The notes beneath the pieces are model-generated. The model worked only from the letters and a program-made list of their open reading frames with translations. It was not told where the DNA came from and did no database searches. Made by a program: the position numbers and the translations under genes. Shown here in pieces: positions 3,922 to 61,418 of a stretch of 64,000 bases of DNA; positions within the stretch are counted from its first letter, which is position 1; every line of letters starts with the position of its first letter. The DNA lies in contig CP011216.1 of assembly GCA_001029795.1 (NCBI GenBank), forward strand, positions 134,903 through 198,902. The letters are read 5' to 3'. Source of the DNA: a candidate division Kazan bacterium GW2011_GWA1_50_15. Its GTDB lineage: Bacteria > Patescibacteriota > Kazan-3B-28.

Positions 3922-5232
3922 ATGATGAAAGATGGCGATAATTCAATGAAGGATATTGTAGCGCTCTGTAAGCGGCGCGGGTTGATTTACCCGGGTTCGG
4001 AGATTTATGGCGGATTGGCCAACACCTGGGACTATGGTCCGTATGGAGTACTTTTAAAAAACAACGTTAAACAACTCTGGTGGAAGGAAATAGTGATGAA
4101 ACGGGCCGACATCGTGGGTCTAGATAGTGGGATATTGATGAACCCAAAGGTATGGGAGGCTAGCGGCCATCTAACTGAGTTTACCGATCCGTTAATCGAG
4201 TGCAAAGACTGTAAAAAACGGTTTAAAGGAGATGATGTTAAGGGTGATGCCTGTCCGGAGTGTAGCGGAAGTCTTGGCGAGGCCAAAAAGTTCAATTTAA
4301 TGTTTGCGACCCACATCGGACCGGTGGCGGATGATAAAAGTATCACGTATCTGCGGCCGGAGACGGCGCAAGGGATTTTCGTCAATTTTAAAAATGTATT
4401 GGATAGCACGCGGGTGAGGCTACCCTTTGGCATCGCCCAGATCGGTAAGGCGTTTCGCAACGAAATCACCCCGGGCAACTTTACTTTTAGAACACTGGAA
4501 TTTGAGCAATTCGAGTTGGAGTATTTTGTCTATCCCGAAACCGCGGATAAATTTTTTGCTGACTGGGCGGATGAACGGTTGCGGTGGTATGTGGATCTGG
4601 GGTTAGACAGTGCCAAGATCCATCTGAAAGCGCATGACAAAAAAGATCTGGCGCACTACGCCAAAGCGGTCACGGATGTGGAGTACAAATTCCCGTTCGG
4701 CTGGAGCGAATTAGAGGGAATAGCCAACCGGGGTGACTATGACCTAGTTCAGCATCAGAAAGTCAGCGGCGAGAGTTTGGAATACACGGACGACGAGGGC
4801 AAAAAAGTGATGCCGTATATTATTGAACCGTCTGGCGGGGTGGATCGCGCCACGCTAGCATTTTTGGTGGATGCTTATCGCGAAGAAGAGGTCAAGGGTG
4901 AGAAGCGGGTGGTGTTGGCGTTAGACCCGCGCTTGGCGCCGATCAGGGCGGCTGTCTTGCCGTTAGTAAAAAAAGAACCGGTAGTGACCAAGGCCAAAGA
5001 GATCTGTGACAGTTTGAGAAATAAATTCTTTGTTGAGTATGACGAGTCGGGCACGGTGGGGAAGCGGTATCGCCGGCAAGATGAGATTGGGACGCCATTT
5101 TGTATTACCGTGGATTTTGAGGGGCTAGAAAGTGAGCCCCAGACCGTAACGATTCGTGACCGAGACACGATGGAGCAGAAGCGGATTGTGATAGACCAAG
5201 TTGGGGAATGGTTGGCAGGGAAAATAAACTAG
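3922..5232 (+). CDS. glyQS: Glycyl-tRNA synthetase (class II, dimeric GlyQS type)
   Basis: 436 aa with GSEIYGGLANTWDYGPYG, class II motifs and an anticodon-binding C-terminus. Confidence 0.85.
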   Translation: MMKDGDNSMKDIVALCKRRGLIYPGSEIYGGLANTWDYGPYGVLLKNNVKQLWWKEIVMKRADIVGLDSGILMNPKVWEASGHLTEFTDPLIECKDCKKRFKGDDVKGDACPECSGSLGEAKKFNLMFATHIGPVADDKSITYLRPETAQGIFVNFKNVLDSTRVRLPFGIAQIGKAFRNEITPGNFTFRTLEFEQFELEYFVYPETADKFFADWADERLRWYVDLGLDSAKIHLKAHDKKDLAHYAKAVTDVEYKFPFGWSELEGIANRGDYDLVQHQKVSGESLEYTDDEGKKVMPYIIEPSGGVDRATLAFLVDAYREEEVKGEKRVVLALDPRLAPIRAAVLPLVKKEPVVTKAKEICDSLRNKFFVEYDESGTVGKRYRRQDEIGTPFCITVDFEGLESEPQTVTIRDRDTMEQKRIVIDQVGEWLAGKIN

Positions 5233-5233
5233 A

Positions 5234-5863
5234 GTGATGAAATCATCAATCTTGCGAGTGGAAACAGTCCGAGGCGACAAGTATGAAAAGTACTTGCTAA
5301 AGTGCAAGAAAGAATTAGATAAATGGTTTGGGGTTAGTGTGGATATCCCCCGGGTGTTGTTTGTGCAGTCGCGTAAAGAATACGACAAGATCGTGGGGTA
5401 TAAAACCGAGGCCTGGCAGGTGGGGAACAGCGGAAATGGGGTAATTTATATTTTAGATCCGAAGATCTACACCAAAGAATCTGACCACAAAGACATTAAG
5501 CGGTTTTGGCTGGTGTTGAAGCATGAATATGTTCATCTGTACTGGCATCAAATGACTGCTTCGTGGAACCCTCGTTGGCTGAATGAGGGATTGGCGTGTT
5601 ATTTGGCTGGACAGGAGAAAAAGGCACCGAGTCAGGAAGTGGTTATCGATGTACGGAAATACTTTGGTCATGGTGGAATGTTTGTCTATGGACTCGGATA
5701 TTTTTGGGTGAATTATTTAGTGAAAAAGTTTGGCAAAACCAAATTGTTGAATTTGATTAAGAGCGTGGATGCGGATGTTACCAACAAGAAATTTGAGGCC
5801 AAGTTCAAGCGAATTTATGGGTTTGGGTTAGATAAGAAATCTCTCGCGAGAATTATGAATTAA
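5234..5863 (+). CDS. HExxH zinc-metallopeptidase-like protein (MA clan-like)
   Basis: HEYVHLYWHQ motif followed by NEGLACYLAG (candidate Glu ligand). AT-rich compared with neighbouring genes. Confidence 0.45.
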   Translation: MMKSSILRVETVRGDKYEKYLLKCKKELDKWFGVSVDIPRVLFVQSRKEYDKIVGYKTEAWQVGNSGNGVIYILDPKIYTKESDHKDIKRFWLVLKHEYVHLYWHQMTASWNPRWLNEGLACYLAGQEKKAPSQEVVIDVRKYFGHGGMFVYGLGYFWVNYLVKKFGKTKLLNLIKSVDADVTNKKFEAKFKRIYGFGLDKKSLARIMN

Positions 5864-5865
5864 GA

Positions 5866-6129
5866 ATGGAAATCATCAAAAAGAAAATTTGGCCGGAGTA
5901 TTTTGAGGCGGTGGTGTCGGGCAAGAAGAACTTTGAAGTGCGACTGGCCGATTTTGATGTGAATGAGGGCGACACGCTTCTTTTGGAGGAGTGGGACCCA
6001 GGGACCAAAGAGTATACTGGCCGGTCGGTAGAGAAGCAGGTTACTTATGTAGCCAAGACCAAGAGTTTTGCTTTCTACCAGCCGGAGGAAGTAGAAAAGT
6101 ACGGCTATCAGGTCATCGGTTTGAAGTAG
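5866..6129 (+). CDS. Small ASCH/DUF3850-like protein
   Basis: 87 aa; the KKNFEVRLADFDVNEGDTLLLEEWD pattern resembles ASCH-like beta-barrels. Tightly linked to the preceding gene (2-nt gap). Confidence 0.35.
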   Translation: MEIIKKKIWPEYFEAVVSGKKNFEVRLADFDVNEGDTLLLEEWDPGTKEYTGRSVEKQVTYVAKTKSFAFYQPEEVEKYGYQVIGLK

Positions 6130-6242
6130 GGGACTGGGGATAACTTTGGTTCCGTCTGAGGTAAAAACATAATATTTCGCTCTGGAAGCGAAGTATTTTT
6201 ATATAAAAATTAGTGGGGTCAAAGGGTTGCCAGATGAAACCT

Positions 6243-6302
6243 TAGTGGTATATGATAAAACCGTTGTGGATAAATGTGGGGATAAGTGGAGGAAACGGTG
6301 GA
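6243..6302 (+). promoter_or_regulatory. Candidate MraZ-box direct repeats (TGTGG at ~10-bp spacing)
   Basis: GTGG(G) motifs at 6245, 6266, 6276, 6286 and 6298; three of them (6266/6276/6286) are exactly 10 bp apart, as in MraZ operator repeats. Confidence 0.35.
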
Positions 6303-8363: not shown

Positions 8364-8575
8364 GTTTTTTTGAACGCAAGCTGGCGTTCAATCCAGCGCT
8401 ACTTTTGTCTTGCCAAAAGTAGCCAAAAGCGTGGCCCTAGCGGCTCCAGCTCTATTCATTGGCTAAATTGCCGGGTGCTTCCGCCGAACTCCTCTCTAAC
8501 GGTCGTCAAACATGCGGCTCCGCCCCGAGCGATTTAGCTCAATTCAGGACGCGCCTCTGCCGAAGGGCCGGACAA
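8364..8575 (+). repeat. Mosaic intergenic repeat family 1, copy C
   Basis: Two hairpins (8371-8390 tgaacgc/gcgttca; 8398-8423 gctacttttg/caaaagtagc), then a body about 80% identical to 58583-58730, ending in gaagggccg. Confidence 0.7.
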
Positions 8576-12772: not shown

Positions 12773-13046
12773 GTAGCGCCTGCGTCGCGCTACACCGACG
12801 GTTACTTTCCTCTTGGGGAAAGTAACCAAAGCCGCTCCGCCAGTCGCTCTGGCTGTGAATAGAAAGCAAAACTAGCTTTCTGGCTTTCGGCGAACTTCTC
12901 CTCGCTGACTCGTTGTCAAACAACGCCTGCGCTGCGCTAGTTTTGCTAATTCACAACGCCAGATCTCCAATGGCGGAAGGGGAGAGGGGAAGGGACGTAG
13001 TTTGCTCGATGGGGGTGGAGGTAGACGACTCTTCGCTGAAGGGCCG
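12773..13046 (+). repeat. Mosaic intergenic repeat family 1, copy A
   Basis: Hairpin 1 is gtagcgc/gcgctac (12773-12793). Hairpin 2 (ggttactttcc-tcttgg-ggaaagtaacc, 12800-12827) is identical to the one at 58553-58580. The body is a diverged relative of copies B and C and ends in ctgaagggccg. Confidence 0.65.
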
Positions 13047-55965: not shown

Positions 55966-56017
55966 CGTGTACAGGAGGTATTATAGGAGAGAAAAGTGTG
56001 GCTGACAACCCTCATTC

Positions 56018-56046
56018 TTGACATCCAGCTCCTTGCCAGCTAAAAT
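56018..56046 (+). promoter_or_regulatory. Sigma-70 promoter upstream of rpsP (TTGACA-17-TAAAAT)
   Basis: ttgaca(56018-23)-17 nt-taaaat(56041-46). Confidence 0.55.
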
Positions 56047-56076
56047 CCTTATGTATATCAGGTAAGCCGAAATGCT

Positions 56077-56646
56077 TTGTTAGTACTCCGTTTAGCTCGT
56101 ACCGGACGCCGGAATCAGCCGAAATACCGTCTGGTCGTAGCCGAAAACAGTAAGCCTTTGGATGGGAAAGTGGTTGAGGTGGTGGGGCACTACAATCCGA
56201 CTGACCCCAATAAACCTCTGGTTATCGAAAAAGAGGTGATTTCCGCGTGGCTCGGGAAGGGCGCGATGCCATCTAACACCGTGGCTAAACTTTTGAATAA
56301 AGAGGGTTTTAACCTGCCGGTACACCAGCATCCGGTCCGGCCGGCCAAGAAAGCGCCGAAGGGGGAAGCGGCTCCGGCAGCTCCTGCTGCGGACCTGCCC
56401 TCCGAAGCTATAACGGAGGAGGCGCCCAAGGAAGAATTGGCTGCGGTGACAGAAGAAGCCGCACCAGAGGCAGTTTCCGAAGCCGTGTCCGAAACACCAG
56501 TTGAAGAAGTACCAGTCGAATCGGTAGTGGAAACAGCCTCCGAAGCTCCGGCTACCAAAGCAGAGGCTCCAGCCAAACCGGTGGCCGAAGAGGTCCCAGC
56601 GCAAGAAAGCGAGACCAAGCCAGAGGGCGAGGCGGGCGCAGAATAA
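56077..56646 (+). CDS. rpsP: 30S ribosomal protein S16 with long Ala/Glu/Pro-rich C-terminal extension
   Basis: LVLRLARTGRRNQPKYRLVVAE matches the S16 N-terminus (TTG start); residues ~90-189 are low-complexity AEP-rich. Confidence 0.8.
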   Translation: MLVLRLARTGRRNQPKYRLVVAENSKPLDGKVVEVVGHYNPTDPNKPLVIEKEVISAWLGKGAMPSNTVAKLLNKEGFNLPVHQHPVRPAKKAPKGEAAPAAPAADLPSEAITEEAPKEELAAVTEEAAPEAVSEAVSETPVEEVPVESVVETASEAPATKAEAPAKPVAEEVPAQESETKPEGEAGAE

Positions 56647-56673
56647 TCTTGATTTTAATTATATCGTTAATTC

Positions 56674-57054
56674 GTGAGCGAGGGAGATATGGCAGAGAAA
56701 GATCAGGAATTCGTTGAATACGCGGTGCGGGCGATCGTTGAAAATCCCGACAAGGTCAAGGTCGAGCGGACCATCGACGAGCGGGGCGTACTATTGTCGC
56801 TGGAGGTTGACCCAGCCGATATGGGCAAGATCATTGGCAAAGACGGGCGGACCGCCAAAGCCATCCGCACTCTTCTCAGGGTGCTGGGCGCTCAGAATGA
56901 CGCGCGGGTGAATCTGAAAATTATTGAGCCGGAAGGCGGTCTGGGCCGGGCTTCCGAGCGGGCGGAACGGACTGAACCGGTCGCCGAGCCGGTGGCCGCA
57001 GTCGATATGCCTGAGACAACTTCAAAAGAAGACCTCGGCGCGTTGGAAGAGTAA
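56674..57054 (+). CDS. KH-domain RNA-binding protein (YlqC-like)
   Basis: GKIIGKDGRTAKAIRTLL KH motif; the conserved rpsP-KH arrangement. Confidence 0.7.
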   Translation: MSEGDMAEKDQEFVEYAVRAIVENPDKVKVERTIDERGVLLSLEVDPADMGKIIGKDGRTAKAIRTLLRVLGAQNDARVNLKIIEPEGGLGRASERAERTEPVAEPVAAVDMPETTSKEDLGALEE

Positions 57055-57135
57055 TCGTTGATTAAATTGACAGCCAACAAGAGCCCCTTGTGGGCTCCTG
57101 TTTTGTTTTTAGAACAGGACACTAGTTCTTACTGT

Positions 57136-57167
57136 GCACTACTTTGAACGGCCGTTCAGGGTAGTGC
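57136..57167. promoter_or_regulatory. 32-bp palindrome overlapping the promoter of the wHTH/Cas2-like gene
   Basis: gcactac-tt-tgaacggccgttca-gg-gtagtgc; the -35-like ttgaac lies inside it, tacaat -10 at 57168-73, ATG at 57180. Confidence 0.55.
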
Positions 57168-57179
57168 TACAATATTATC

Positions 57180-57650
57180 ATGAAAACAAGTAGAACGGCG
57201 TGGCGACTGATGAAATATTTTATGCGACTCTCGGATGAGATAGGGGAACTTGTCTTGGATGAGTTGCGACAACGCAAACTGCGCAAGAGCCCGCGGGCGG
57301 GGGAAGGTAGATCCTTTCGTTATCTGAAGCAGGCGGGTTATCTTGTTCCATTAGGAGAAAATCGTTTTCAGATTACTGATCTTGCGCGGATTAATTTTTT
57401 AGCCGAACTGGTCAAGGGACGCAAACCAGACGGTCAGTGGAGAATAGTGATTTTTGATATTCCTGAAAAATTGAAACGCAGTCGCAATGTCTTTCGCCGT
57501 CATCTTAGAGAATTGGGCTTCCGAATGAAACAACAGAGCGTATGGGTGTCGCCGTTACCCTGTGATGATTTGGTGGAGTTGGTAATAAAATATCATGGTC
57601 TGGGTCGGTACGCCGAGTTGTTGGTAGGGACAACAGTAGCACTACACTGA
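57180..57650 (+). CDS. Putative regulator: N-terminal winged-helix plus C-terminal Cas2/PaaX-C-like domain
   Basis: 156 aa; the N-terminal half looks like a wHTH, and the C-terminal WRIVIFDIPEKLKRSRNVFRRHLRELGFRMKQQSVWV resembles the Cas2-like ferredoxin fold seen in PaaX-type regulators. It occupies the rimM position between the KH gene and trmD. Confidence 0.35.
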   Translation: MKTSRTAWRLMKYFMRLSDEIGELVLDELRQRKLRKSPRAGEGRSFRYLKQAGYLVPLGENRFQITDLARINFLAELVKGRKPDGQWRIVIFDIPEKLKRSRNVFRRHLRELGFRMKQQSVWVSPLPCDDLVELVIKYHGLGRYAELLVGTTVALH

Positions 57651-57670
57651 ACGGCCGTTCAGTGTAGTGC
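57639..57670. promoter_or_regulatory. Second, perfect copy of the 32-bp palindrome (overlaps the stop codon of the wHTH gene, upstream of trmD)
   Basis: gcactacactgaacggccgttcagtgtagtgc is a perfect palindrome, followed by a gcacaatg direct repeat. Confidence 0.55.
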
Positions 57671-57747
57671 ACAATGTAATGCACAATGAGATTGACGAGG
57701 TGGGGTGCATAAAGGTATGGTGCTGATGTGAAATTTATGGTGCTGAT

Positions 57748-58467
57748 ATGAAGTTTACGGTGATAACGATTTTTCCGGGGTTGGTGGAGGATTATTTCAA
57801 GGAAGGGATTTTGTCCCGGGCTTTGCGGAACAAGCAGGTTGGATTAAAAGCGATTAATCCGCGCAAGTTTACGAAGGATAAGCATCAGACCGTGGATGAT
57901 GTGCCGTATGGCGGGGGGGCGGGGCTGGTCATGAAGTTGGAGCCGCTGGTGGCGGCAATTAAACAAGCGGCGAAGTCTCGTTTTCGTCATTCCGAACTTG
58001 TTTCGGAATCTAGTTATGAAACGGGGAAGATCCTGAAACGAGTTCAGGATGACGGGAAAAAAGTAAGAATTATTTTATTAGATCCGAGGGGGAGGCGGTT
58101 TACGCAGAAAGAAGCGAAGCGGCTGACGAAATATGATGAATTGATTTTTGTGTGTGGAAGATACGAAGGGATAGATGAAAGAATTAAACATTATATTGAC
58201 GAGAAATTGTCAATCGGGGATTTTGTGTTGATGGGTGGAGAATTGGGGGCGCTGACGGTAATGGAAGCGGTGGCGCGATTAATTCCAAATGTGTTGCATC
58301 ATCCGGAATCGACAAAATTTGAAAGTTTTTCCGAAGGAAATAATTTGGAACATCCGCAGTACACTCGGCCGGAGGTATTCGAGGGGCATAAAGTGCCGAA
58401 GGTACTTTTGTCTGGGCATCATGGGAAAATTGGGACGTGGAGAGAGAAACAGACCAAGAAAGCTTGA
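57748..58467 (+). CDS. trmD: tRNA (m1G37) methyltransferase TrmD
   Basis: SPOUT trefoil-knot motifs (VITIFPGL, GGGAGLVMK, CGRYEGIDERI, GGELGALTVMEAV). Confidence 0.85.
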   Translation: MKFTVITIFPGLVEDYFKEGILSRALRNKQVGLKAINPRKFTKDKHQTVDDVPYGGGAGLVMKLEPLVAAIKQAAKSRFRHSELVSESSYETGKILKRVQDDGKKVRIILLDPRGRRFTQKEAKRLTKYDELIFVCGRYEGIDERIKHYIDEKLSIGDFVLMGGELGALTVMEAVARLIPNVLHHPESTKFESFSEGNNLEHPQYTRPEVFEGHKVPKVLLSGHHGKIGTWREKQTKKA

Positions 58468-58523
58468 TTTTTTGCCTTAGGTTTTTTTGTCATTCCGGAT
58501 TTAGCTCGGAATCCTTTTTGTTT

Positions 58524-58730
58524 TTCAAGGGTCTGAGCGACCCTTGGACCGCGGTTACTTTCCTCTTGGGGAAAGTAACCAAAGCCGTGGCCCTGTTCAC
58601 TCGGCCTATTCATTGGCTAAATCGATGGGTGCTCCCGCCGAACTCGTCCCGGCTAGCCGGGACTCAAACATGCGGCTCCGCCCCAAGCGATTTAGCTCAA
58701 TTCAAGACGGCCTCGTTCCAAAGGGCCGTA
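58524..58730 (+). repeat. Mosaic intergenic repeat family 1, copy B
   Basis: Hairpin 1 is agggtc/gaccct (58526-58546). Hairpin 2 (58553-58580) is identical to copy A. The body is about 80% identical to copy C. Confidence 0.7.
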
Positions 58731-58887
58731 TTGGGGGAAAGCTTGACTGGGAGCGAGTTTTGTGCTATGTTTGGGGTGTAAGGTGGAGCGGTCGTAATCT
58801 GGATTTCTAGTGCCGCTATATCAACCACCAGCACCTTAAAGACTTGCTTACTACAGTTGGCCTATAAGGTGAAACAAGGAGACTGGG

Positions 58888-59508
58888 ATGAAACTCCTGG
58901 CCGCCCTTAAGTTTGTCGTCGAGTTGCTCACGCAGCTCGTCACCCTGGGTGAAGAAGGCCTTGGTCGGATTATGGAACGGATGAACTATATCCGCGAAAT
59001 TACCGGCCGGGTACACCTGCCCACCATCCAGGAATTCACACAATTTCTGGACCAGGCCGTAGGCCACATCGTAGACTGCGATGCTGATCCAACCATCCCC
59101 TCGGATTACAACTGGACCATCGAACGCCACATCAAGAGCGGTAAGGTTCGGCTGGAACGCCGTGGAGACACTCTGTATGTTGACGGGAAGAAGGTTATCC
59201 TTCATCTCGTCAAGCAACAGACCAGGAACGGGGTCATCCTGGGCCACGAACTCTGCAAGGAGCTCGAGAAAGGCAAGTTGGTGTTGCTCAGCGCCAACCT
59301 ACTTGACTATTTACTTGAGCACCCCGAGCTTATCCCCGATACCTGGAAGGGTAAGGCCGTGTTCTTCTGGGGCACAGTCTATCGCGGCTCGGACGGCAGC
59401 CTCAACGTTCGTTACCTCGGCTGGGACGATGGTGGGTGGAGCTGGGACTACTACTGGCTCGACTACGGCTGGTACTCGAACCGCCCGGCTGCTGTTCTCG
59501 CAAGTTAG
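58888..59508 (+). CDS. DGR target protein: C-type-lectin/FGE-like fold with C-terminal variable repeat; no signal peptide
   Basis: 206 aa. The last ~42 aa (VYRGSDGSLNVRYLGWDDGGWSWDYYWLDYGWYSNRPAAV) are encoded by the VR, which matches the TR except at TR adenines. Confidence 0.85.
   Translation: MKLLAALKFVVELLTQLVTLGEEGLGRIMERMNYIREITGRVHLPTIQEFTQFLDQAVGHIVDCDADPTIPSDYNWTIERHIKSGKVRLERRGDTLYVDGKKVILHLVKQQTRNGVILGHELCKELEKGKLVLLSANLLDYLLEHPELIPDTWKGKAVFFWGTVYRGSDGSLNVRYLGWDDGGWSWDYYWLDYGWYSNRPAAVLAS
59377..59501 (+). repeat. DGR variable repeat (VR)
   Basis: Ungapped 125-bp alignment with 59832-59956 (offset 455): 107 identical, 18 mismatches, every one at an A in the TR (A->G 13, A->T 3, A->C 2). 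Confidence 0.9.
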
Positions 59509-59528
59509 TCTTTGGACCTTGGGCCCTT

Positions 59529-59586
59529 GGATCTTCGGATCCTTTGACCTTGGTCCTGCCCGCACGGCAACGTGCGGGTTTTTTTG
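59529..59586 (+). terminator. Two tetraloop hairpins downstream of the VR (ggatc-ttcg-gatcc; cccgcacg-gcaa-cgtgcggg plus T7)
   Basis: The second hairpin plus ttttttt is an intrinsic terminator for the target gene. A GC-rich hairpin 3' of the VR is also a known DGR homing enhancer. Confidence 0.55.
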
Positions 59587-59831
59587 TTACAATGTTGCTG
59601 GAACTAGGCGAATATGCCAGAGATCACGGTTTCTGGCTGCCGAACCCAGTATCCATATGTCCAGAGTATCTCCGACTACGGTTTGAGGTAGTGTGATGTA
59701 TGTAGAAACTTCAAAAAATGAAGATACTTGGTGCGAGATATTCAGGCATTATAGATGCCGAATAAAATACAGCCCCAAGAGTTCTGCTGTACAGCAGAAT
59801 CAAGGGGTGGTGACAATGGATGGTATCTCGC

Positions 59832-59956
59832 ATAAATCGCAACTCGGACGGCAACCTCAACGTTCGTTACCTCAACTGGAACGATGGTAGGTGGAACTGG
59901 AACTACAACTGGCTCGACAACGACTGGAACTCGAACAACCCGGCTGCTGTTCTCGC
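59832..59956 (+). repeat. DGR template repeat (TR)
   Basis: Invariant partner of the VR; read in frame it encodes 13 Asn (AAC) codons (SRINRNSDGNLNVRYLNWNDGRWNWNYNWLDNDWNSNNPAAV). Confidence 0.9.
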
Positions 59957-59964
59957 TACTGTCT

Positions 59965-60330
59965 TCATTTCTCTCCCGACTTATCGGGAGAGTTTTGTCT
60001 ATTAAGCTGTCCGTTCCATCCACCCAGCATCTTGCCGATTTCATCCAGTTGAACCGAGACAGCACTGTACTTTTTGTTATCTAGTGACTTGGTCTCCCAG
60101 AGAACCATTAACAGAATTTTGAGGGTGTCAGTTTTACGGATTGCTAATCTGACATATGGAGATTTTTCGGCTCGACTAAGAAAACTGGCTTGGGCGACGG
60201 CTTCGATAACCTCAACAAAAAGGTTGTCCGCCCTTCGTCCCAAGGAATAACGATGGAGTTTGGGCAGAACTTGGTAATAGTTATACCATAGGAGGTACGC
60301 CTGTTTTAGATGTTGAAGTAGCGGGAGCAA
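59965..60330 (-). CDS. avd: DGR accessory variability determinant (Avd-like four-helix-bundle protein), opposite strand to TR and RT
   Basis: 121 aa. The C-terminal DEIGKMLGGWNGQLNRQ matches, from memory, the conserved (E)(V/I)G(R/K)(I/M)LG(S/G)W...(L/V)NR(K/Q) C-terminus of Avd / 23S-IVS four-helix-bundle proteins. TTG start; located between the TR and the RT. Confidence 0.55.
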   Translation of the reverse strand: MLPLLQHLKQAYLLWYNYYQVLPKLHRYSLGRRADNLFVEVIEAVAQASFLSRAEKSPYVRLAIRKTDTLKILLMVLWETKSLDNKKYSAVSVQLDEIGKMLGGWNGQLNRQNSPDKSGEK

Positions 60331-60351
60331 CTCTCTCTCTCTCTCTCTCTC
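60331..60351. repeat. (CT)10 dinucleotide microsatellite in the avd/RT divergent intergenic region
   Basis: ctctctctctctctctctctc sits within the 44-bp gap between the avd start (60330, minus) and the RT start (60375, plus). Confidence 0.9.
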
Positions 60352-60374
60352 GATGCCGCGGGTCGGTTCATCAT

Positions 60375-61418
60375 ATGAAAATCGCCGAAGGGTATTACGA
60401 ACACATTATCTCACTCCATAACCTCCTTGAGGCCTGGCGGGAGTTCGTGGTTGGGAAGCGAGCTAGGGTAGATGTCCAGTTGTTTGAGCGGAACTTAATG
60501 GCTAATATTATCAAACTAAATAGGGATTTGGAAGTTGGGAAATATCGGCACTCGGATTATCACCCATTTAAGATTTCTGATCCGAAACCTAGGAACATTC
60601 ATAAGGCGAGTGTCCGAGACCGATTATTGCATAAAGCCATCTATAGAATCTTATATCCGACATGGGATAAAACCTTTATTGTCGACAGCTATTCTTGTCG
60701 AAATAACAAAGGTACTCACAAGGCATTTGCTAAACTTGAGACTGTCGCTCGGAAGATTAGCCAGAATTATACCAGACCATGTTTTGCACTGAAGTGCGAT
60801 ATTAAAAGATTTTTCGACAGCGTGGATCATGGGGTGTTGATGGGACTGCTAAGGGAACGCATCGCCGATGAACGACTTTTGAAGTTGCTTGAAGAAATTA
60901 TTTTTAGTTTTTCTGTCTGGATTCCGGGTCAAGCCCGGAATGACGAAGAGGGCAAGGGGATGCCGTTGGGGAATCTGACATCGCAACTGTTTGCCAATAT
61001 CTATCTCGACCCGCTGGATAAGTTCGCGAAGCACCAACTCAAAGCCAAATATTATCTACGGTATGCAGATGATTTTATCTTTTTGGCCGATAATCCGGAT
61101 GAATTGACGGGCTACTTAGTTGAAGTTGCCAGGTTTGCGAAATCGGAACTGGAGCTCCAACTCCATCCTAACAAGATTAGTTTGAGAAAACTGAAATGGG
61201 GGATTGATTATGTTGGGTATGTCGCCCTGCCGCAATATAGCTTGCCTAGAAAGAAGACGGTCACACGAATTATTAAAAATATTCGTCGACTTTTGGCGGC
61301 GGGAGACGATGTGGCGCTGGCTAATGCGCTGCCATCGTACTTAGGGTACCTGAAACATGCCAGGAGCCGTGGGATAGTTTGCGGGCTGGAGCGGCTGATG
61401 GCGCCAAAGGGGTGGTGA
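60375..61418 (+). CDS. DGR reverse transcriptase
   Basis: 347 aa with RT motifs 1-7, including GMPLGNLTSQLFANIYL (the DGR-specific I/LGxxxSQ motif) and LRYADDFIFL (YxDD). Confidence 0.9.
   Translation: MKIAEGYYEHIISLHNLLEAWREFVVGKRARVDVQLFERNLMANIIKLNRDLEVGKYRHSDYHPFKISDPKPRNIHKASVRDRLLHKAIYRILYPTWDKTFIVDSYSCRNNKGTHKAFAKLETVARKISQNYTRPCFALKCDIKRFFDSVDHGVLMGLLRERIADERLLKLLEEIIFSFSVWIPGQARNDEEGKGMPLGNLTSQLFANIYLDPLDKFAKHQLKAKYYLRYADDFIFLADNPDELTGYLVEVARFAKSELELQLHPNKISLRKLKWGIDYVGYVALPQYSLPRKKTVTRIIKNIRRLLAAGDDVALANALPSYLGYLKHARSRGIVCGLERLMAPKGW

Follow-up and report, generated by a model that had tools for sequence, protein, structure and literature searches.

A truncated PaaX-family gene bracketed by two copies of a palindrome in a Kazan bacterium: a candidate autorepressor module

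The locus and its two palindromes

In the candidate division Kazan bacterium GW2011_GWA1_50_15, a gene for a 156 amino acid protein of the PaaX superfamily lies between two copies of a 32-bp palindrome, one upstream of the gene (U) and the other on its stop codon (D). Here we describe this arrangement in a 64,000-nucleotide stretch of contig CP011216.1 (hereafter the window; positions are those of the window unless another locus, designated by L and a number, is named), follow it through the relatives of the gene, and consider what it may do. The features of the locus are as follows.

56077-56646: rpsP
56674-57054: KhpA-type KH gene
57081-57111, plus strand: intrinsic terminator of the rpsP-KH unit (GAGCCCCTTGTGGGCTC and a T-rich tail; 57081-57097 plus the T tract), from the terminator scan
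57136-57167, no strand: upstream dyad U, GCACTAC-TT-TGAACGGCCGTTCA-GG-GTAGTGC; in full GCACTACTTTGAACGGCCGTTCAGGGTAGTGC
57144-57173, plus strand: predicted promoter of the gene, TTGAAC-18-TACAAT with an upstream TG (extended -10), from the promoter scan
57180-57650, plus strand: open reading frame (ORF) of the 156 amino acid truncated PaaX-family protein
57639-57670, no strand: downstream dyad D, GCACTAC-AC-TGAACGGCCGTTCA-GT-GTAGTGC, a perfect palindrome; in full GCACTACACTGAACGGCCGTTCAGTGTAGTGC
57660-57683, plus strand: 12-nt tandem duplication of the right arm of D (CAGTGTAGTGCA / CAATGTAATGCA), absent from L094 and L104
57692-57721, plus strand: promoter-like site of trmD, TTGACG-18-TATGGT, 21 nt beyond D, from the promoter scan and conserved in L094
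57716-57762, plus strand: lineage-specific 20-nt tandem duplication over the -10 and start codon of trmD, absent from L094
57748-58467, plus strand: trmD, the downstream neighbor (Pfam tRNA_m1G_MT, 4e-55)

Each dyad is composed of a 7-bp outer box, a 2-nt linker, a 14-bp core, a second 2-nt linker and the inverted box (7 + 2 + 14 + 2 + 7 = 32). An earlier note on this DNA had reported the two copies at 57136-57167 and 57639-57670; they are real, except that the linkers are two nucleotides long and not three as was claimed there. U and D are the only two matches in the 64 kb at up to 3 mismatches (0 expected from 100 shuffles), and the search for further copies that the note had recommended, run across the window, finds none beyond them. 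D is the longest palindrome of the window. The two copies differ at 3 of 32 positions, every one of them in the 2-nt linkers, and U itself is imperfect, with two T:G mismatches. The description of D as a perfect second copy is thus right as to its own symmetry and wrong as to its identity with U. No other operators with the outer boxes alone or the core alone are found above chance in the window.

The upstream copy is interlocked with the promoter of the gene. The -35 hexamer TTGAAC lies inside the core of U, the outer box of U supplies the TG of the extended -10, and the ATG at 57180 sits 6 nt past the -10. Some databases call a start 10 codons further in, which gives a shorter gene. The spacing of -10, 6 nt and ATG is found again in six of eight close relatives, and the N-terminal sequence MKTSRxAYRL is conserved among homologs; both observations support the long ORF and its leaderless start. 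We therefore regard the start at 57180 as well supported by the sequence, with transcription predicted to begin at or beside the ATG and the mRNA predicted to be leaderless. The geometry proposed in the earlier note, an operator laid over a promoter with a leaderless ATG, stands up to the promoter scan and to the conserved spacing.

The downstream copy is equally interlocked with the end of the gene. D begins 9 nt before the stop codon, and the stop (TGA, 57648-57650) is the first triplet of its 14-bp core. The same is true of the TGA stops of L011, L012, L015 and L016, while L013 has TAA at the equivalent position and a variant core, TAAACGGCCG. The duplication at 57660 adds a half-site-like box and yields the direct repeat GCACAATG. 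This repeat, which had been noticed before, is real and is the product of the 12-nt tandem duplication, a lineage-specific event absent from the 92%-identical relative L094.

The cassette is insulated from upstream transcription by the terminator of the rpsP-KH unit. A hairpin equivalent to this terminator is also found 3' of KH in L009, in L094 and in the genomes in which no cassette lies between KH and trmD; in the latter, the -10 of trmD comes immediately after the T tract of the KH terminator. In this clade trmD is seemingly leaderless too, with a -10-like hexamer that ends approximately 6 nt before the ATG (window 57748-57762; L096, L097, L099, L113).

The protein, its family and the bracket

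The earlier note predicted a winged helix joined to the Cas2-like domain of PaaX-type regulators, and profile and structure comparisons both bear this out. The Pfam domain PaaX_M (PF20803), the Cas2-like middle domain of PaaX, matches residues 82-154 with an E-value of 8.3e-21 (74.3 bits; cutoff 24). The Cas2 models fare differently: TIGR01573 gives 27.5 bits (cutoff 24.5) with residues 88-126 alone aligned, Pfam CRISPR_Cas2 reaches 22.8 against a cutoff of 23.8, and PADLOC reports partial Cas2 matches only. The PaaX_M score is 15 orders of magnitude above the Cas2 score. An AlphaFold (AF2) model made with 21 homologs is confident (pLDDT 89.9, pTM 0.81). The modelled fold has an N-terminal helix, a winged helix (approximately residues 5-65; helix-strand-helix-helix-wing), a linker helix and a Cas2-like beta-alpha-beta-beta-alpha-beta domain (residues 87-150). 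A Foldseek search against the PDB could have returned a confident alternative fold; instead it returned PaaX and Cas2, with E. coli PaaX (8a39; 165 columns, both domains) at the top and type II-A Cas2 and Rv0674 next.

Judged from these matches and the model, the ORF is a truncated member of the PaaX superfamily, with a winged helix and a Cas2-like domain. The Pfam model of the PaaX N-terminus does not match the protein, nor does that of PaaX_C, and the protein ends at residue 156, directly past the Cas2-like domain. It is not a PaaX equivalog, because it scores 18.7 bits with TIGR02277 (PaaX_trns_reg), for which the cutoff is 264.55. It is not a CRISPR Cas2 either, since there is no cas1 and no array: no cas genes are found within 4 kb on either side of the ORF and no CRISPR array in the 64 kb. 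Public annotation nevertheless labels members of the family as "Cas2" or "PaaX, phenylacetate regulator," and one relative is named Cas2 by NCBI. We considered two other identities. A defense system is rejected, as PADLOC gives only the partial Cas2 matches, and a phage or plasmid origin is rejected, as relatives are found neither in IMG/VR viral contigs nor in phage records. The single PHROG match is at chance level (E = 0.058).

How general is the bracket formed by U and D? A scan of one genome per species gives at least 541 relatives of the protein; of the best 80, 77 have record titles that name Patescibacteria groups (Candidate Phyla Radiation, CPR). A profile search of 1.8 billion cluster representatives yields 4,879 relatives at E <= 1e-3 and 1,599 at E <= 1e-10, and most of the 150 best-scoring ones are 170-195 amino acids long. 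We scored a locus as bracketed when its upstream and downstream regions share a repeat with a score of at least 16, and used the ORFs of the same loci as controls. Such a repeat is present in 45 of 76 family loci as compared to 7 of 365 control ORFs (p = 2e-33), and a looser dyad search makes the element visible in most of the remaining loci as well. In 42 of 44 loci the repeat occurs exactly twice within approximately 8 kb, beside unrelated housekeeping genes. With a length of 28-52 bp, the dyads have locus-specific arms; their centers read CGATCG, CGGCCG, GCGACCGC or GCTAT(A/C)GC, and the center type common to the dyads is CG-N2-CG.

Homologs with 57-76% identity to the protein occur in three contexts: in the rpsP-KH-x-trmD slot, after tig, and after the target gene of a diversity-generating retroelement (DGR). 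All four of these homologs carry one copy of a dyad ahead of the promoter and another over the stop codon. The outer boxes vary between loci and match within one locus, while the ACGGCCGT center is retained, and a single Kazan genome of 700 kb carries three paralogs with three distinct box sets. Symmetry is not universal: in the subfamily of L047, L048, L065 and L084, an asymmetry is conserved in U and D alike. In 563 kb around family genes, 57 strong CG-centered dyads lie beside the gene and one is solo; in 336 kb picked via trmD independently of the family, five lie beside a family gene and four are solo. Thus 62 of the 67 strong CG-centered dyads in approximately 900 kb of CPR sequence adjoin a family gene. 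We conclude with high confidence that the palindrome belongs to the gene, both in the link between protein and site and in its anatomy.

These counts bear directly on whether the palindrome could be a generic dispersed repeat, similar to repetitive extragenic palindromic (REP) sequences or bacterial interspersed mosaic elements, that flanks the gene by chance. A few solo CG-centered palindromes do lie between genes in other CPR genomes (L107, beside apt and an MTAP gene; L161; L073). However, the earlier note had named a palindrome at many unrelated loci as the mark of a generic REP, and what is found is a single pair of copies in the 64 kb, a pair and no more in 42 of 44 loci, and a sequence that is locus-specific and changes along with the protein. 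A generic repeat is extremely unlikely, and we reject it on copy number.

Solo family-type palindromes with no adjacent PaaX-like gene are seen at L161 288-337, L107 4919-4964 and L093 approximately 2866-2901. Those of L161 and L093 lie between KH and trmD; that of L107 (46 nt) shares its first base with the end of the apt stop codon and precedes an MTAP-like gene. Copy number is higher in two other cases. The cassette of L051 has four dyad copies, not two; directly upstream of it is a frameshifted copy of the first 215 or so codons of an ABC-transporter ATPase gene, the intact gene being downstream (L051 3037-3700 versus 4931-6289). In a GC-rich contig labelled Candidatus Fimivivens (L066 2400-7130), the family dyad (…ACATAATAATGCGGTCGTCAGATTATGT…) occurs nine times, mostly paired approximately 100 bp apart, in every intergenic region among five neighboring genes, which encode paralogous proteins of approximately 190-235 amino acids with no Pfam match. 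This set of dyads looks like a local regulon of the PaaX-like protein.

Where does D stand with respect to its neighbors? In 27 of 55 loci its left edge falls between -15 and +10 nt relative to the family gene's stop codon, and 46 of the 55 have it at no more than +40 nt. Among 72 downstream neighbors, 30 are convergent; together the 72 cover 100 Pfam families with no common partner, and a conserved downstream partner gene is accordingly rejected. The earlier note had proposed that the operator of the gene also controls trmD. On that reading D would be mainly the operator of the downstream gene (trmD here) and the bracket would be incidental. A promoter-like site does lie 21 nt past D, the right box of D in L015 reaches into the stretch 17-23 nt before the trmD -10, L093 and L161 have a palindrome between KH and trmD with no family gene present, and the dyads of L066 occupy five intergenic regions around its neighbors. 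On the other hand, D is present whatever follows, and it keeps its place relative to the family gene's stop codon and not relative to the start of the next gene. Because of the convergent neighbors, the lack of a common partner and the tie to the stop codon, D does not in general serve the next gene as its operator, and we find this explanation doubtful. Control of trmD by D may hold locally; as a rule for the family it does not.

In the literature searched we found no paper that ties short PaaX-like or Cas2-like CPR proteins to flanking palindromes, and the family and its bracket architecture are apparently undescribed there. One published site, AACnAACGTTnGTT of T. thermophilus TTHA0973, resembles the core, but the protein is the TetR-family PaaR and the likeness is irrelevant.

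History of the cassette

The earlier note located the gene in the rimM slot of an operon that lacks rimM and rplS. Neither of these genes is detectable in the window, and the position is right as compared to the canonical operon: 31 more distant loci have RimM between KH and trmD. However, in the closest relatives the slot is simply empty. In the Kazan-like loci L095-L097, L099 and L113, a terminator and a promoter follow each other within 70-150 nt; the slot carries the cassette in the window, L092, L094 and L104, and apparently also in L013 and L015, judged by the sizes of the neighboring genes alone. In this comparison, which the note had suggested, gene and palindromes are present or absent together, the exceptions being the solo palindromes of L093 and L161.

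The cassette and its flanks differ in their divergence at fourfold-degenerate sites. Between the window and L094, identity at these sites is 41% for KH, 73% for the cassette gene and 48% for TrmD; between the window and L092, the values are 43%, 29% and 62% (Fisher p = 0.0005-0.006 for the mosaic contrasts). We conclude that lineages exchanged the cassette when its flanking genes had already diverged. The segment that is recently common to the window and L094 takes in both intergenic regions and extends past the palindromes, and no target-site duplication is found at the flanks (...TTACTGT before U and ACAATGT after D); for these reasons, homologous replacement fits better than site-specific transposition. 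In L011, a related genome with neighbors approximately 84% identical, the cassette lies after the DGR target gene. The solo palindrome of L093 is followed by a weak 15-residue match to residues 9-23 of the protein (E = 0.01 in a tiny database), which is suggestive only of a gene remnant. The paralogs are old (53-76% identity), and a distance tree, which carries little weight given its long branches, does not group the copies in the rpsP slot. We found no near-identical cassette copies in differing contexts and no integrase in the cassette or its neighbors, although a host recombinase might act on the sites, as in an integron cassette or a tyrosine-recombinase att or dif module. The unit is gained, lost and swapped as a whole; our confidence in any mechanism of mobility is low.

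Could the cassette be a small mobile or selfish element? Here the palindromes would be recombination ends (hairpin, cruciform or att-like) acted on by the Cas2-like protein or a host recombinase. The earlier note had raised a related alternative, namely that the palindromes are the terminal inverted repeats (TIRs) of an inserted cassette. Part of that proposal stands, since the gene and both palindromes act as a unit, are missing from the slot in relatives and have their own history at fourfold sites. The same unit is found in unrelated contexts with several copies per genome, the slot shows both empty sites and solo palindromes, and the L051 cassette sits beside a decayed partial duplicate of the neighboring ATPase gene. 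The Asp of the Cas2-like beta1 strand (D93) does not vary among the close homologs of alignment A1, and the 26 compensated changes described below are expected for structures with intrastrand pairing. Against all this, we found neither a target-site duplication nor a transposase, an integrase or a HUH motif, no relative in viral contigs or phage records, and no set of near-identical copies in differing contexts. The orientation of U and D is not consistently inverted (direct in 8 of the scorable loci, inverted in 5). The segment shared with L094 overruns the palindromes, in keeping with homologous replacement better than with site-specific recombination, and the weak match in L093 allows for decay by deletion instead of clean excision. 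A mobile element of this kind is quite unlikely.

Other features of the window also stand out. The S16 protein encoded at 56077-56646 has a low-complexity C-terminal extension of approximately 110 residues in which Ala, Glu, Pro and Val abound; in relatives this is its poorly conserved part, RpsP being 66% identical where KH is 94% identical. A DGR occupies 58888-61418 of the window. Its target gene encodes 206 amino acids, with a C-terminus (…YYWLDYGWYSNRPAAVLAS) echoed by an Asn-rich template-like repeat at approximately 59820-60005; a bAvd-like gene (59965-60330, minus strand; Pfam bAvd, 7.8e-10) and the reverse transcriptase gene (60375-61418; RVT_1, 4e-22) follow. L011 retains the target gene and then has a PaaX-like cassette in place of the template repeat, bAvd and reverse transcriptase. 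There is also a non-coding repeat of approximately 175 nt at 58556-58728, 8400-8570 and 12794-12834 (the two full window copies are 79.5% identical), which recurs at L015 470-662, at L097 3667-3769 and in the KH-trmD spacers of L098, L102 and L105. It has a hairpin with compensating changes between conserved flanks (GAACTCG-hairpin-CTCAAAC), then a promoter-like CTTGACTGGGAGCG, and has no Rfam match. A small RNA and a miniature inverted-repeat transposable element are both possible identities, and the repeat may mediate rearrangements such as that of L011.

A putative autorepressor circuit and its known counterparts

We consider the gene to be a minimal PaaX-family autorepressor with two operators, U and D, and put the probability of this reading at roughly 0.6; we infer the binding, the repression and the looping or roadblock at D from the layout. 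A predicted dimer at U would cover the -35 and the extended -10 of its own leaderless promoter and shut it off. The Cas2-like domain is proposed to be the dimerization module of this protein, which has no effector domain. D, on the stop codon, would be the second operator of the same circuit: it would most likely loop with U, block RNA polymerase at the end of the gene, or do both, as LacI does at O3. Such a circuit would tighten self-repression and gate read-through towards trmD. The order terminator-U-promoter-gene-D is the standard, self-contained module of a very large and mostly patescibacterial family, in which each paralog has private outer boxes around a shared center of the CG-N2-CG type and the module is duplicated, lost and exchanged whole in the course of evolution.

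The repressor reading has a precedent. The dyad bound by PaaX is a long one (TGATTC-N27-GAATCA), and steric hindrance is the means by which PaaX represses its own promoter (PMC9493321). The pattern of change in U and D also fits: between the window and L094, the boxes and cores are identical at 56 of 56 positions although 27% of the fourfold sites of the gene differ, while the four linker positions of U differ freely. Constant boxes and cores with free linkers are expected of a protein-binding site in which the linkers are not contacted. Given the PaaX precedent, the position of U over the -35 to -10 region and the conserved boxes and core, autorepression at U is the most likely function, and we hold this with moderate confidence; for D as a loop anchor or roadblock our confidence is low to moderate. 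The suggestion of an autoregulatory repressor in the earlier note is thus strengthened, as the palindrome travels and changes together with the gene wherever we examined it, and as PaaX, too, binds a dyad to repress itself.

Several observations weigh against this reading. There is no further target site in the 64 kb beyond the flanks of the gene itself, and without the PaaX effector domain the protein has no evident signal to respond to. D ends 21 nt ahead of the trmD -35, and direct occlusion is not obvious. The spacing between U and D is 503-534 bp in close relatives, with helical phasing not conserved. The palindromes, moreover, show a regularity that simple base-specific recognition by one protein does not predict. 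Among 569 arm positions, the differences between U and D comprise 26 compensated doubles, 47 singles and 10 other doubles; approximately 2 compensated doubles would be expected (p = 6e-20), and each copy keeps its own symmetry. In L012, L023 and L083, the outer boxes and center are shared, and the segment between them differs yet is perfectly symmetric within each copy. This symmetry points to intrastrand pairing (a cruciform or hairpin) or to symmetrization by template switching. Template switching in quasi-palindromes is a known mutational process that keeps the two arms alike.

The palindromes might also be RNA hairpins instead of DNA operators, serving as terminators or stabilizers of the 3' ends of this mRNA and of transcripts from upstream, or as RNA targets of the Cas2-like domain. 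As RNA, D forms a 14-bp stem with -29.9 kcal/mol (z = -4.7), and the compensated changes within copies are of the kind that such a stem would leave. Some dyads, for example those of L067, L077 and L083, resemble bidirectional terminators in that their GC stem stands between runs of A and T. Among sense-strand mismatches, G:T outnumbers A:C (39 versus 19, p = 0.012), which hints weakly at selection at the RNA level; this is outweighed by the 72 non-wobble mismatches. Furthermore, U is situated between a separate intrinsic terminator and its own -10, where no sense transcription is expected, and D has no U-tract and was not called by the terminator scan. A terminator needs no identical, locus-specific sequence on both sides of a gene, and Rfam gives two chance-level matches only in 56000-60500 at E <= 1. 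We judge RNA hairpins to be very unlikely.

It is tempting to ask whether the symmetry reflects folded DNA. The cassettes might be an unrecognized class of self-contained element, mostly in Patescibacteria, whose protein would be no ordinary transcription factor and would act on its own flanking palindromes in folded form (a cruciform or hairpin) to insulate, copy, swap or excise the unit. We think this unlikely, even though it would account for the strict symmetry, the multi-copy design with private sites, the solo sites and the decoupled history. If true, it would mean a Cas2 relative that recognizes DNA structure outside CRISPR.

The family is of interest beyond this locus. Patescibacteria have, to our knowledge, very few recognizable regulators, and the short PaaX-like family, with several copies per sub-megabase genome, may be among their main families of DNA-binding proteins. 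The annotations "Cas2" and "PaaX" misfit the family by the features tested (no cas1 or array, no C-terminal domain, no paa genes). The putative operator of each member can be read from the flanks of its gene, giving hundreds of natural protein-site pairs that would be useful for studying the evolution of winged-helix specificity and for the design of orthogonal repressors. The layout suggests a general self-limiting circuit that combines promoter occlusion with a block at the stop codon, and, given the symmetry and the swapping of cassettes, a Cas2-like fold might possibly take part in a DNA transaction that depends on structure.

How does the module compare with known systems? Like the REP-associated tyrosine transposases (RAYT) with their REP sequences and like IS200/IS605, it has a small gene between similar palindromes and a ferredoxin-like core. 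In contrast to them, the protein has no HUH/Tyr motif and no match to Y1 transposases (no HUH-Tyr transposase match in Pfam, NCBIfam or PHROG), the palindromes are not dispersed, and the paralogs are old, each with its own palindrome sequence. Type II-A Cas2 (5zyf, 5xvn, 6jhz) has the same ferredoxin-like fold as the C-terminal domain of the window protein, and the latter shares with Cas2 the beta1 motif vifDiPe, including the invariant Asp, and the motif QqSVW. In contrast to Cas2, residues 88-126 alone match, the domain is fused to a winged helix, and cas1 and an array are missing.

In lacI, the auxiliary operator O3 lies at the end of the gene, and when it is looped to O1 RNA polymerase is blocked there, giving stop-less transcripts and an SsrA-tagged product (PMC3711431). 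The D site of the window similarly straddles the stop codon of the putative repressor's own gene. The analogy is one of layout only: the families are unrelated, and in many relatives D starts a few nucleotides after the stop.

With PaaX (E. coli W, 8a39; Rv0674, 3kfw) the window protein shares the N-terminal winged helix and the Cas2-like middle domain, and, as proposed here, the logic of a dyad and autorepression. It differs in being 156 instead of approximately 305-316 amino acids long, without the entire C-terminal domain, and in having no link to paa genes: its neighbors are rpsP, KH and trmD here and belong to 100 unrelated Pfam families elsewhere. The PaaX operator is made of two distant hexamers, whereas that of the window is a contiguous 32-bp palindrome with a conserved CG-rich center. 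A second operator copy on the stop codon, a multi-copy family in tiny genomes, and cassette-like gain, loss and exchange also set the module apart from PaaX. A PaaX equivalog, a CRISPR Cas2, a REP/RAYT system and a TIR transposon each fail at least one tested defining feature, and the closest known system is PaaX.

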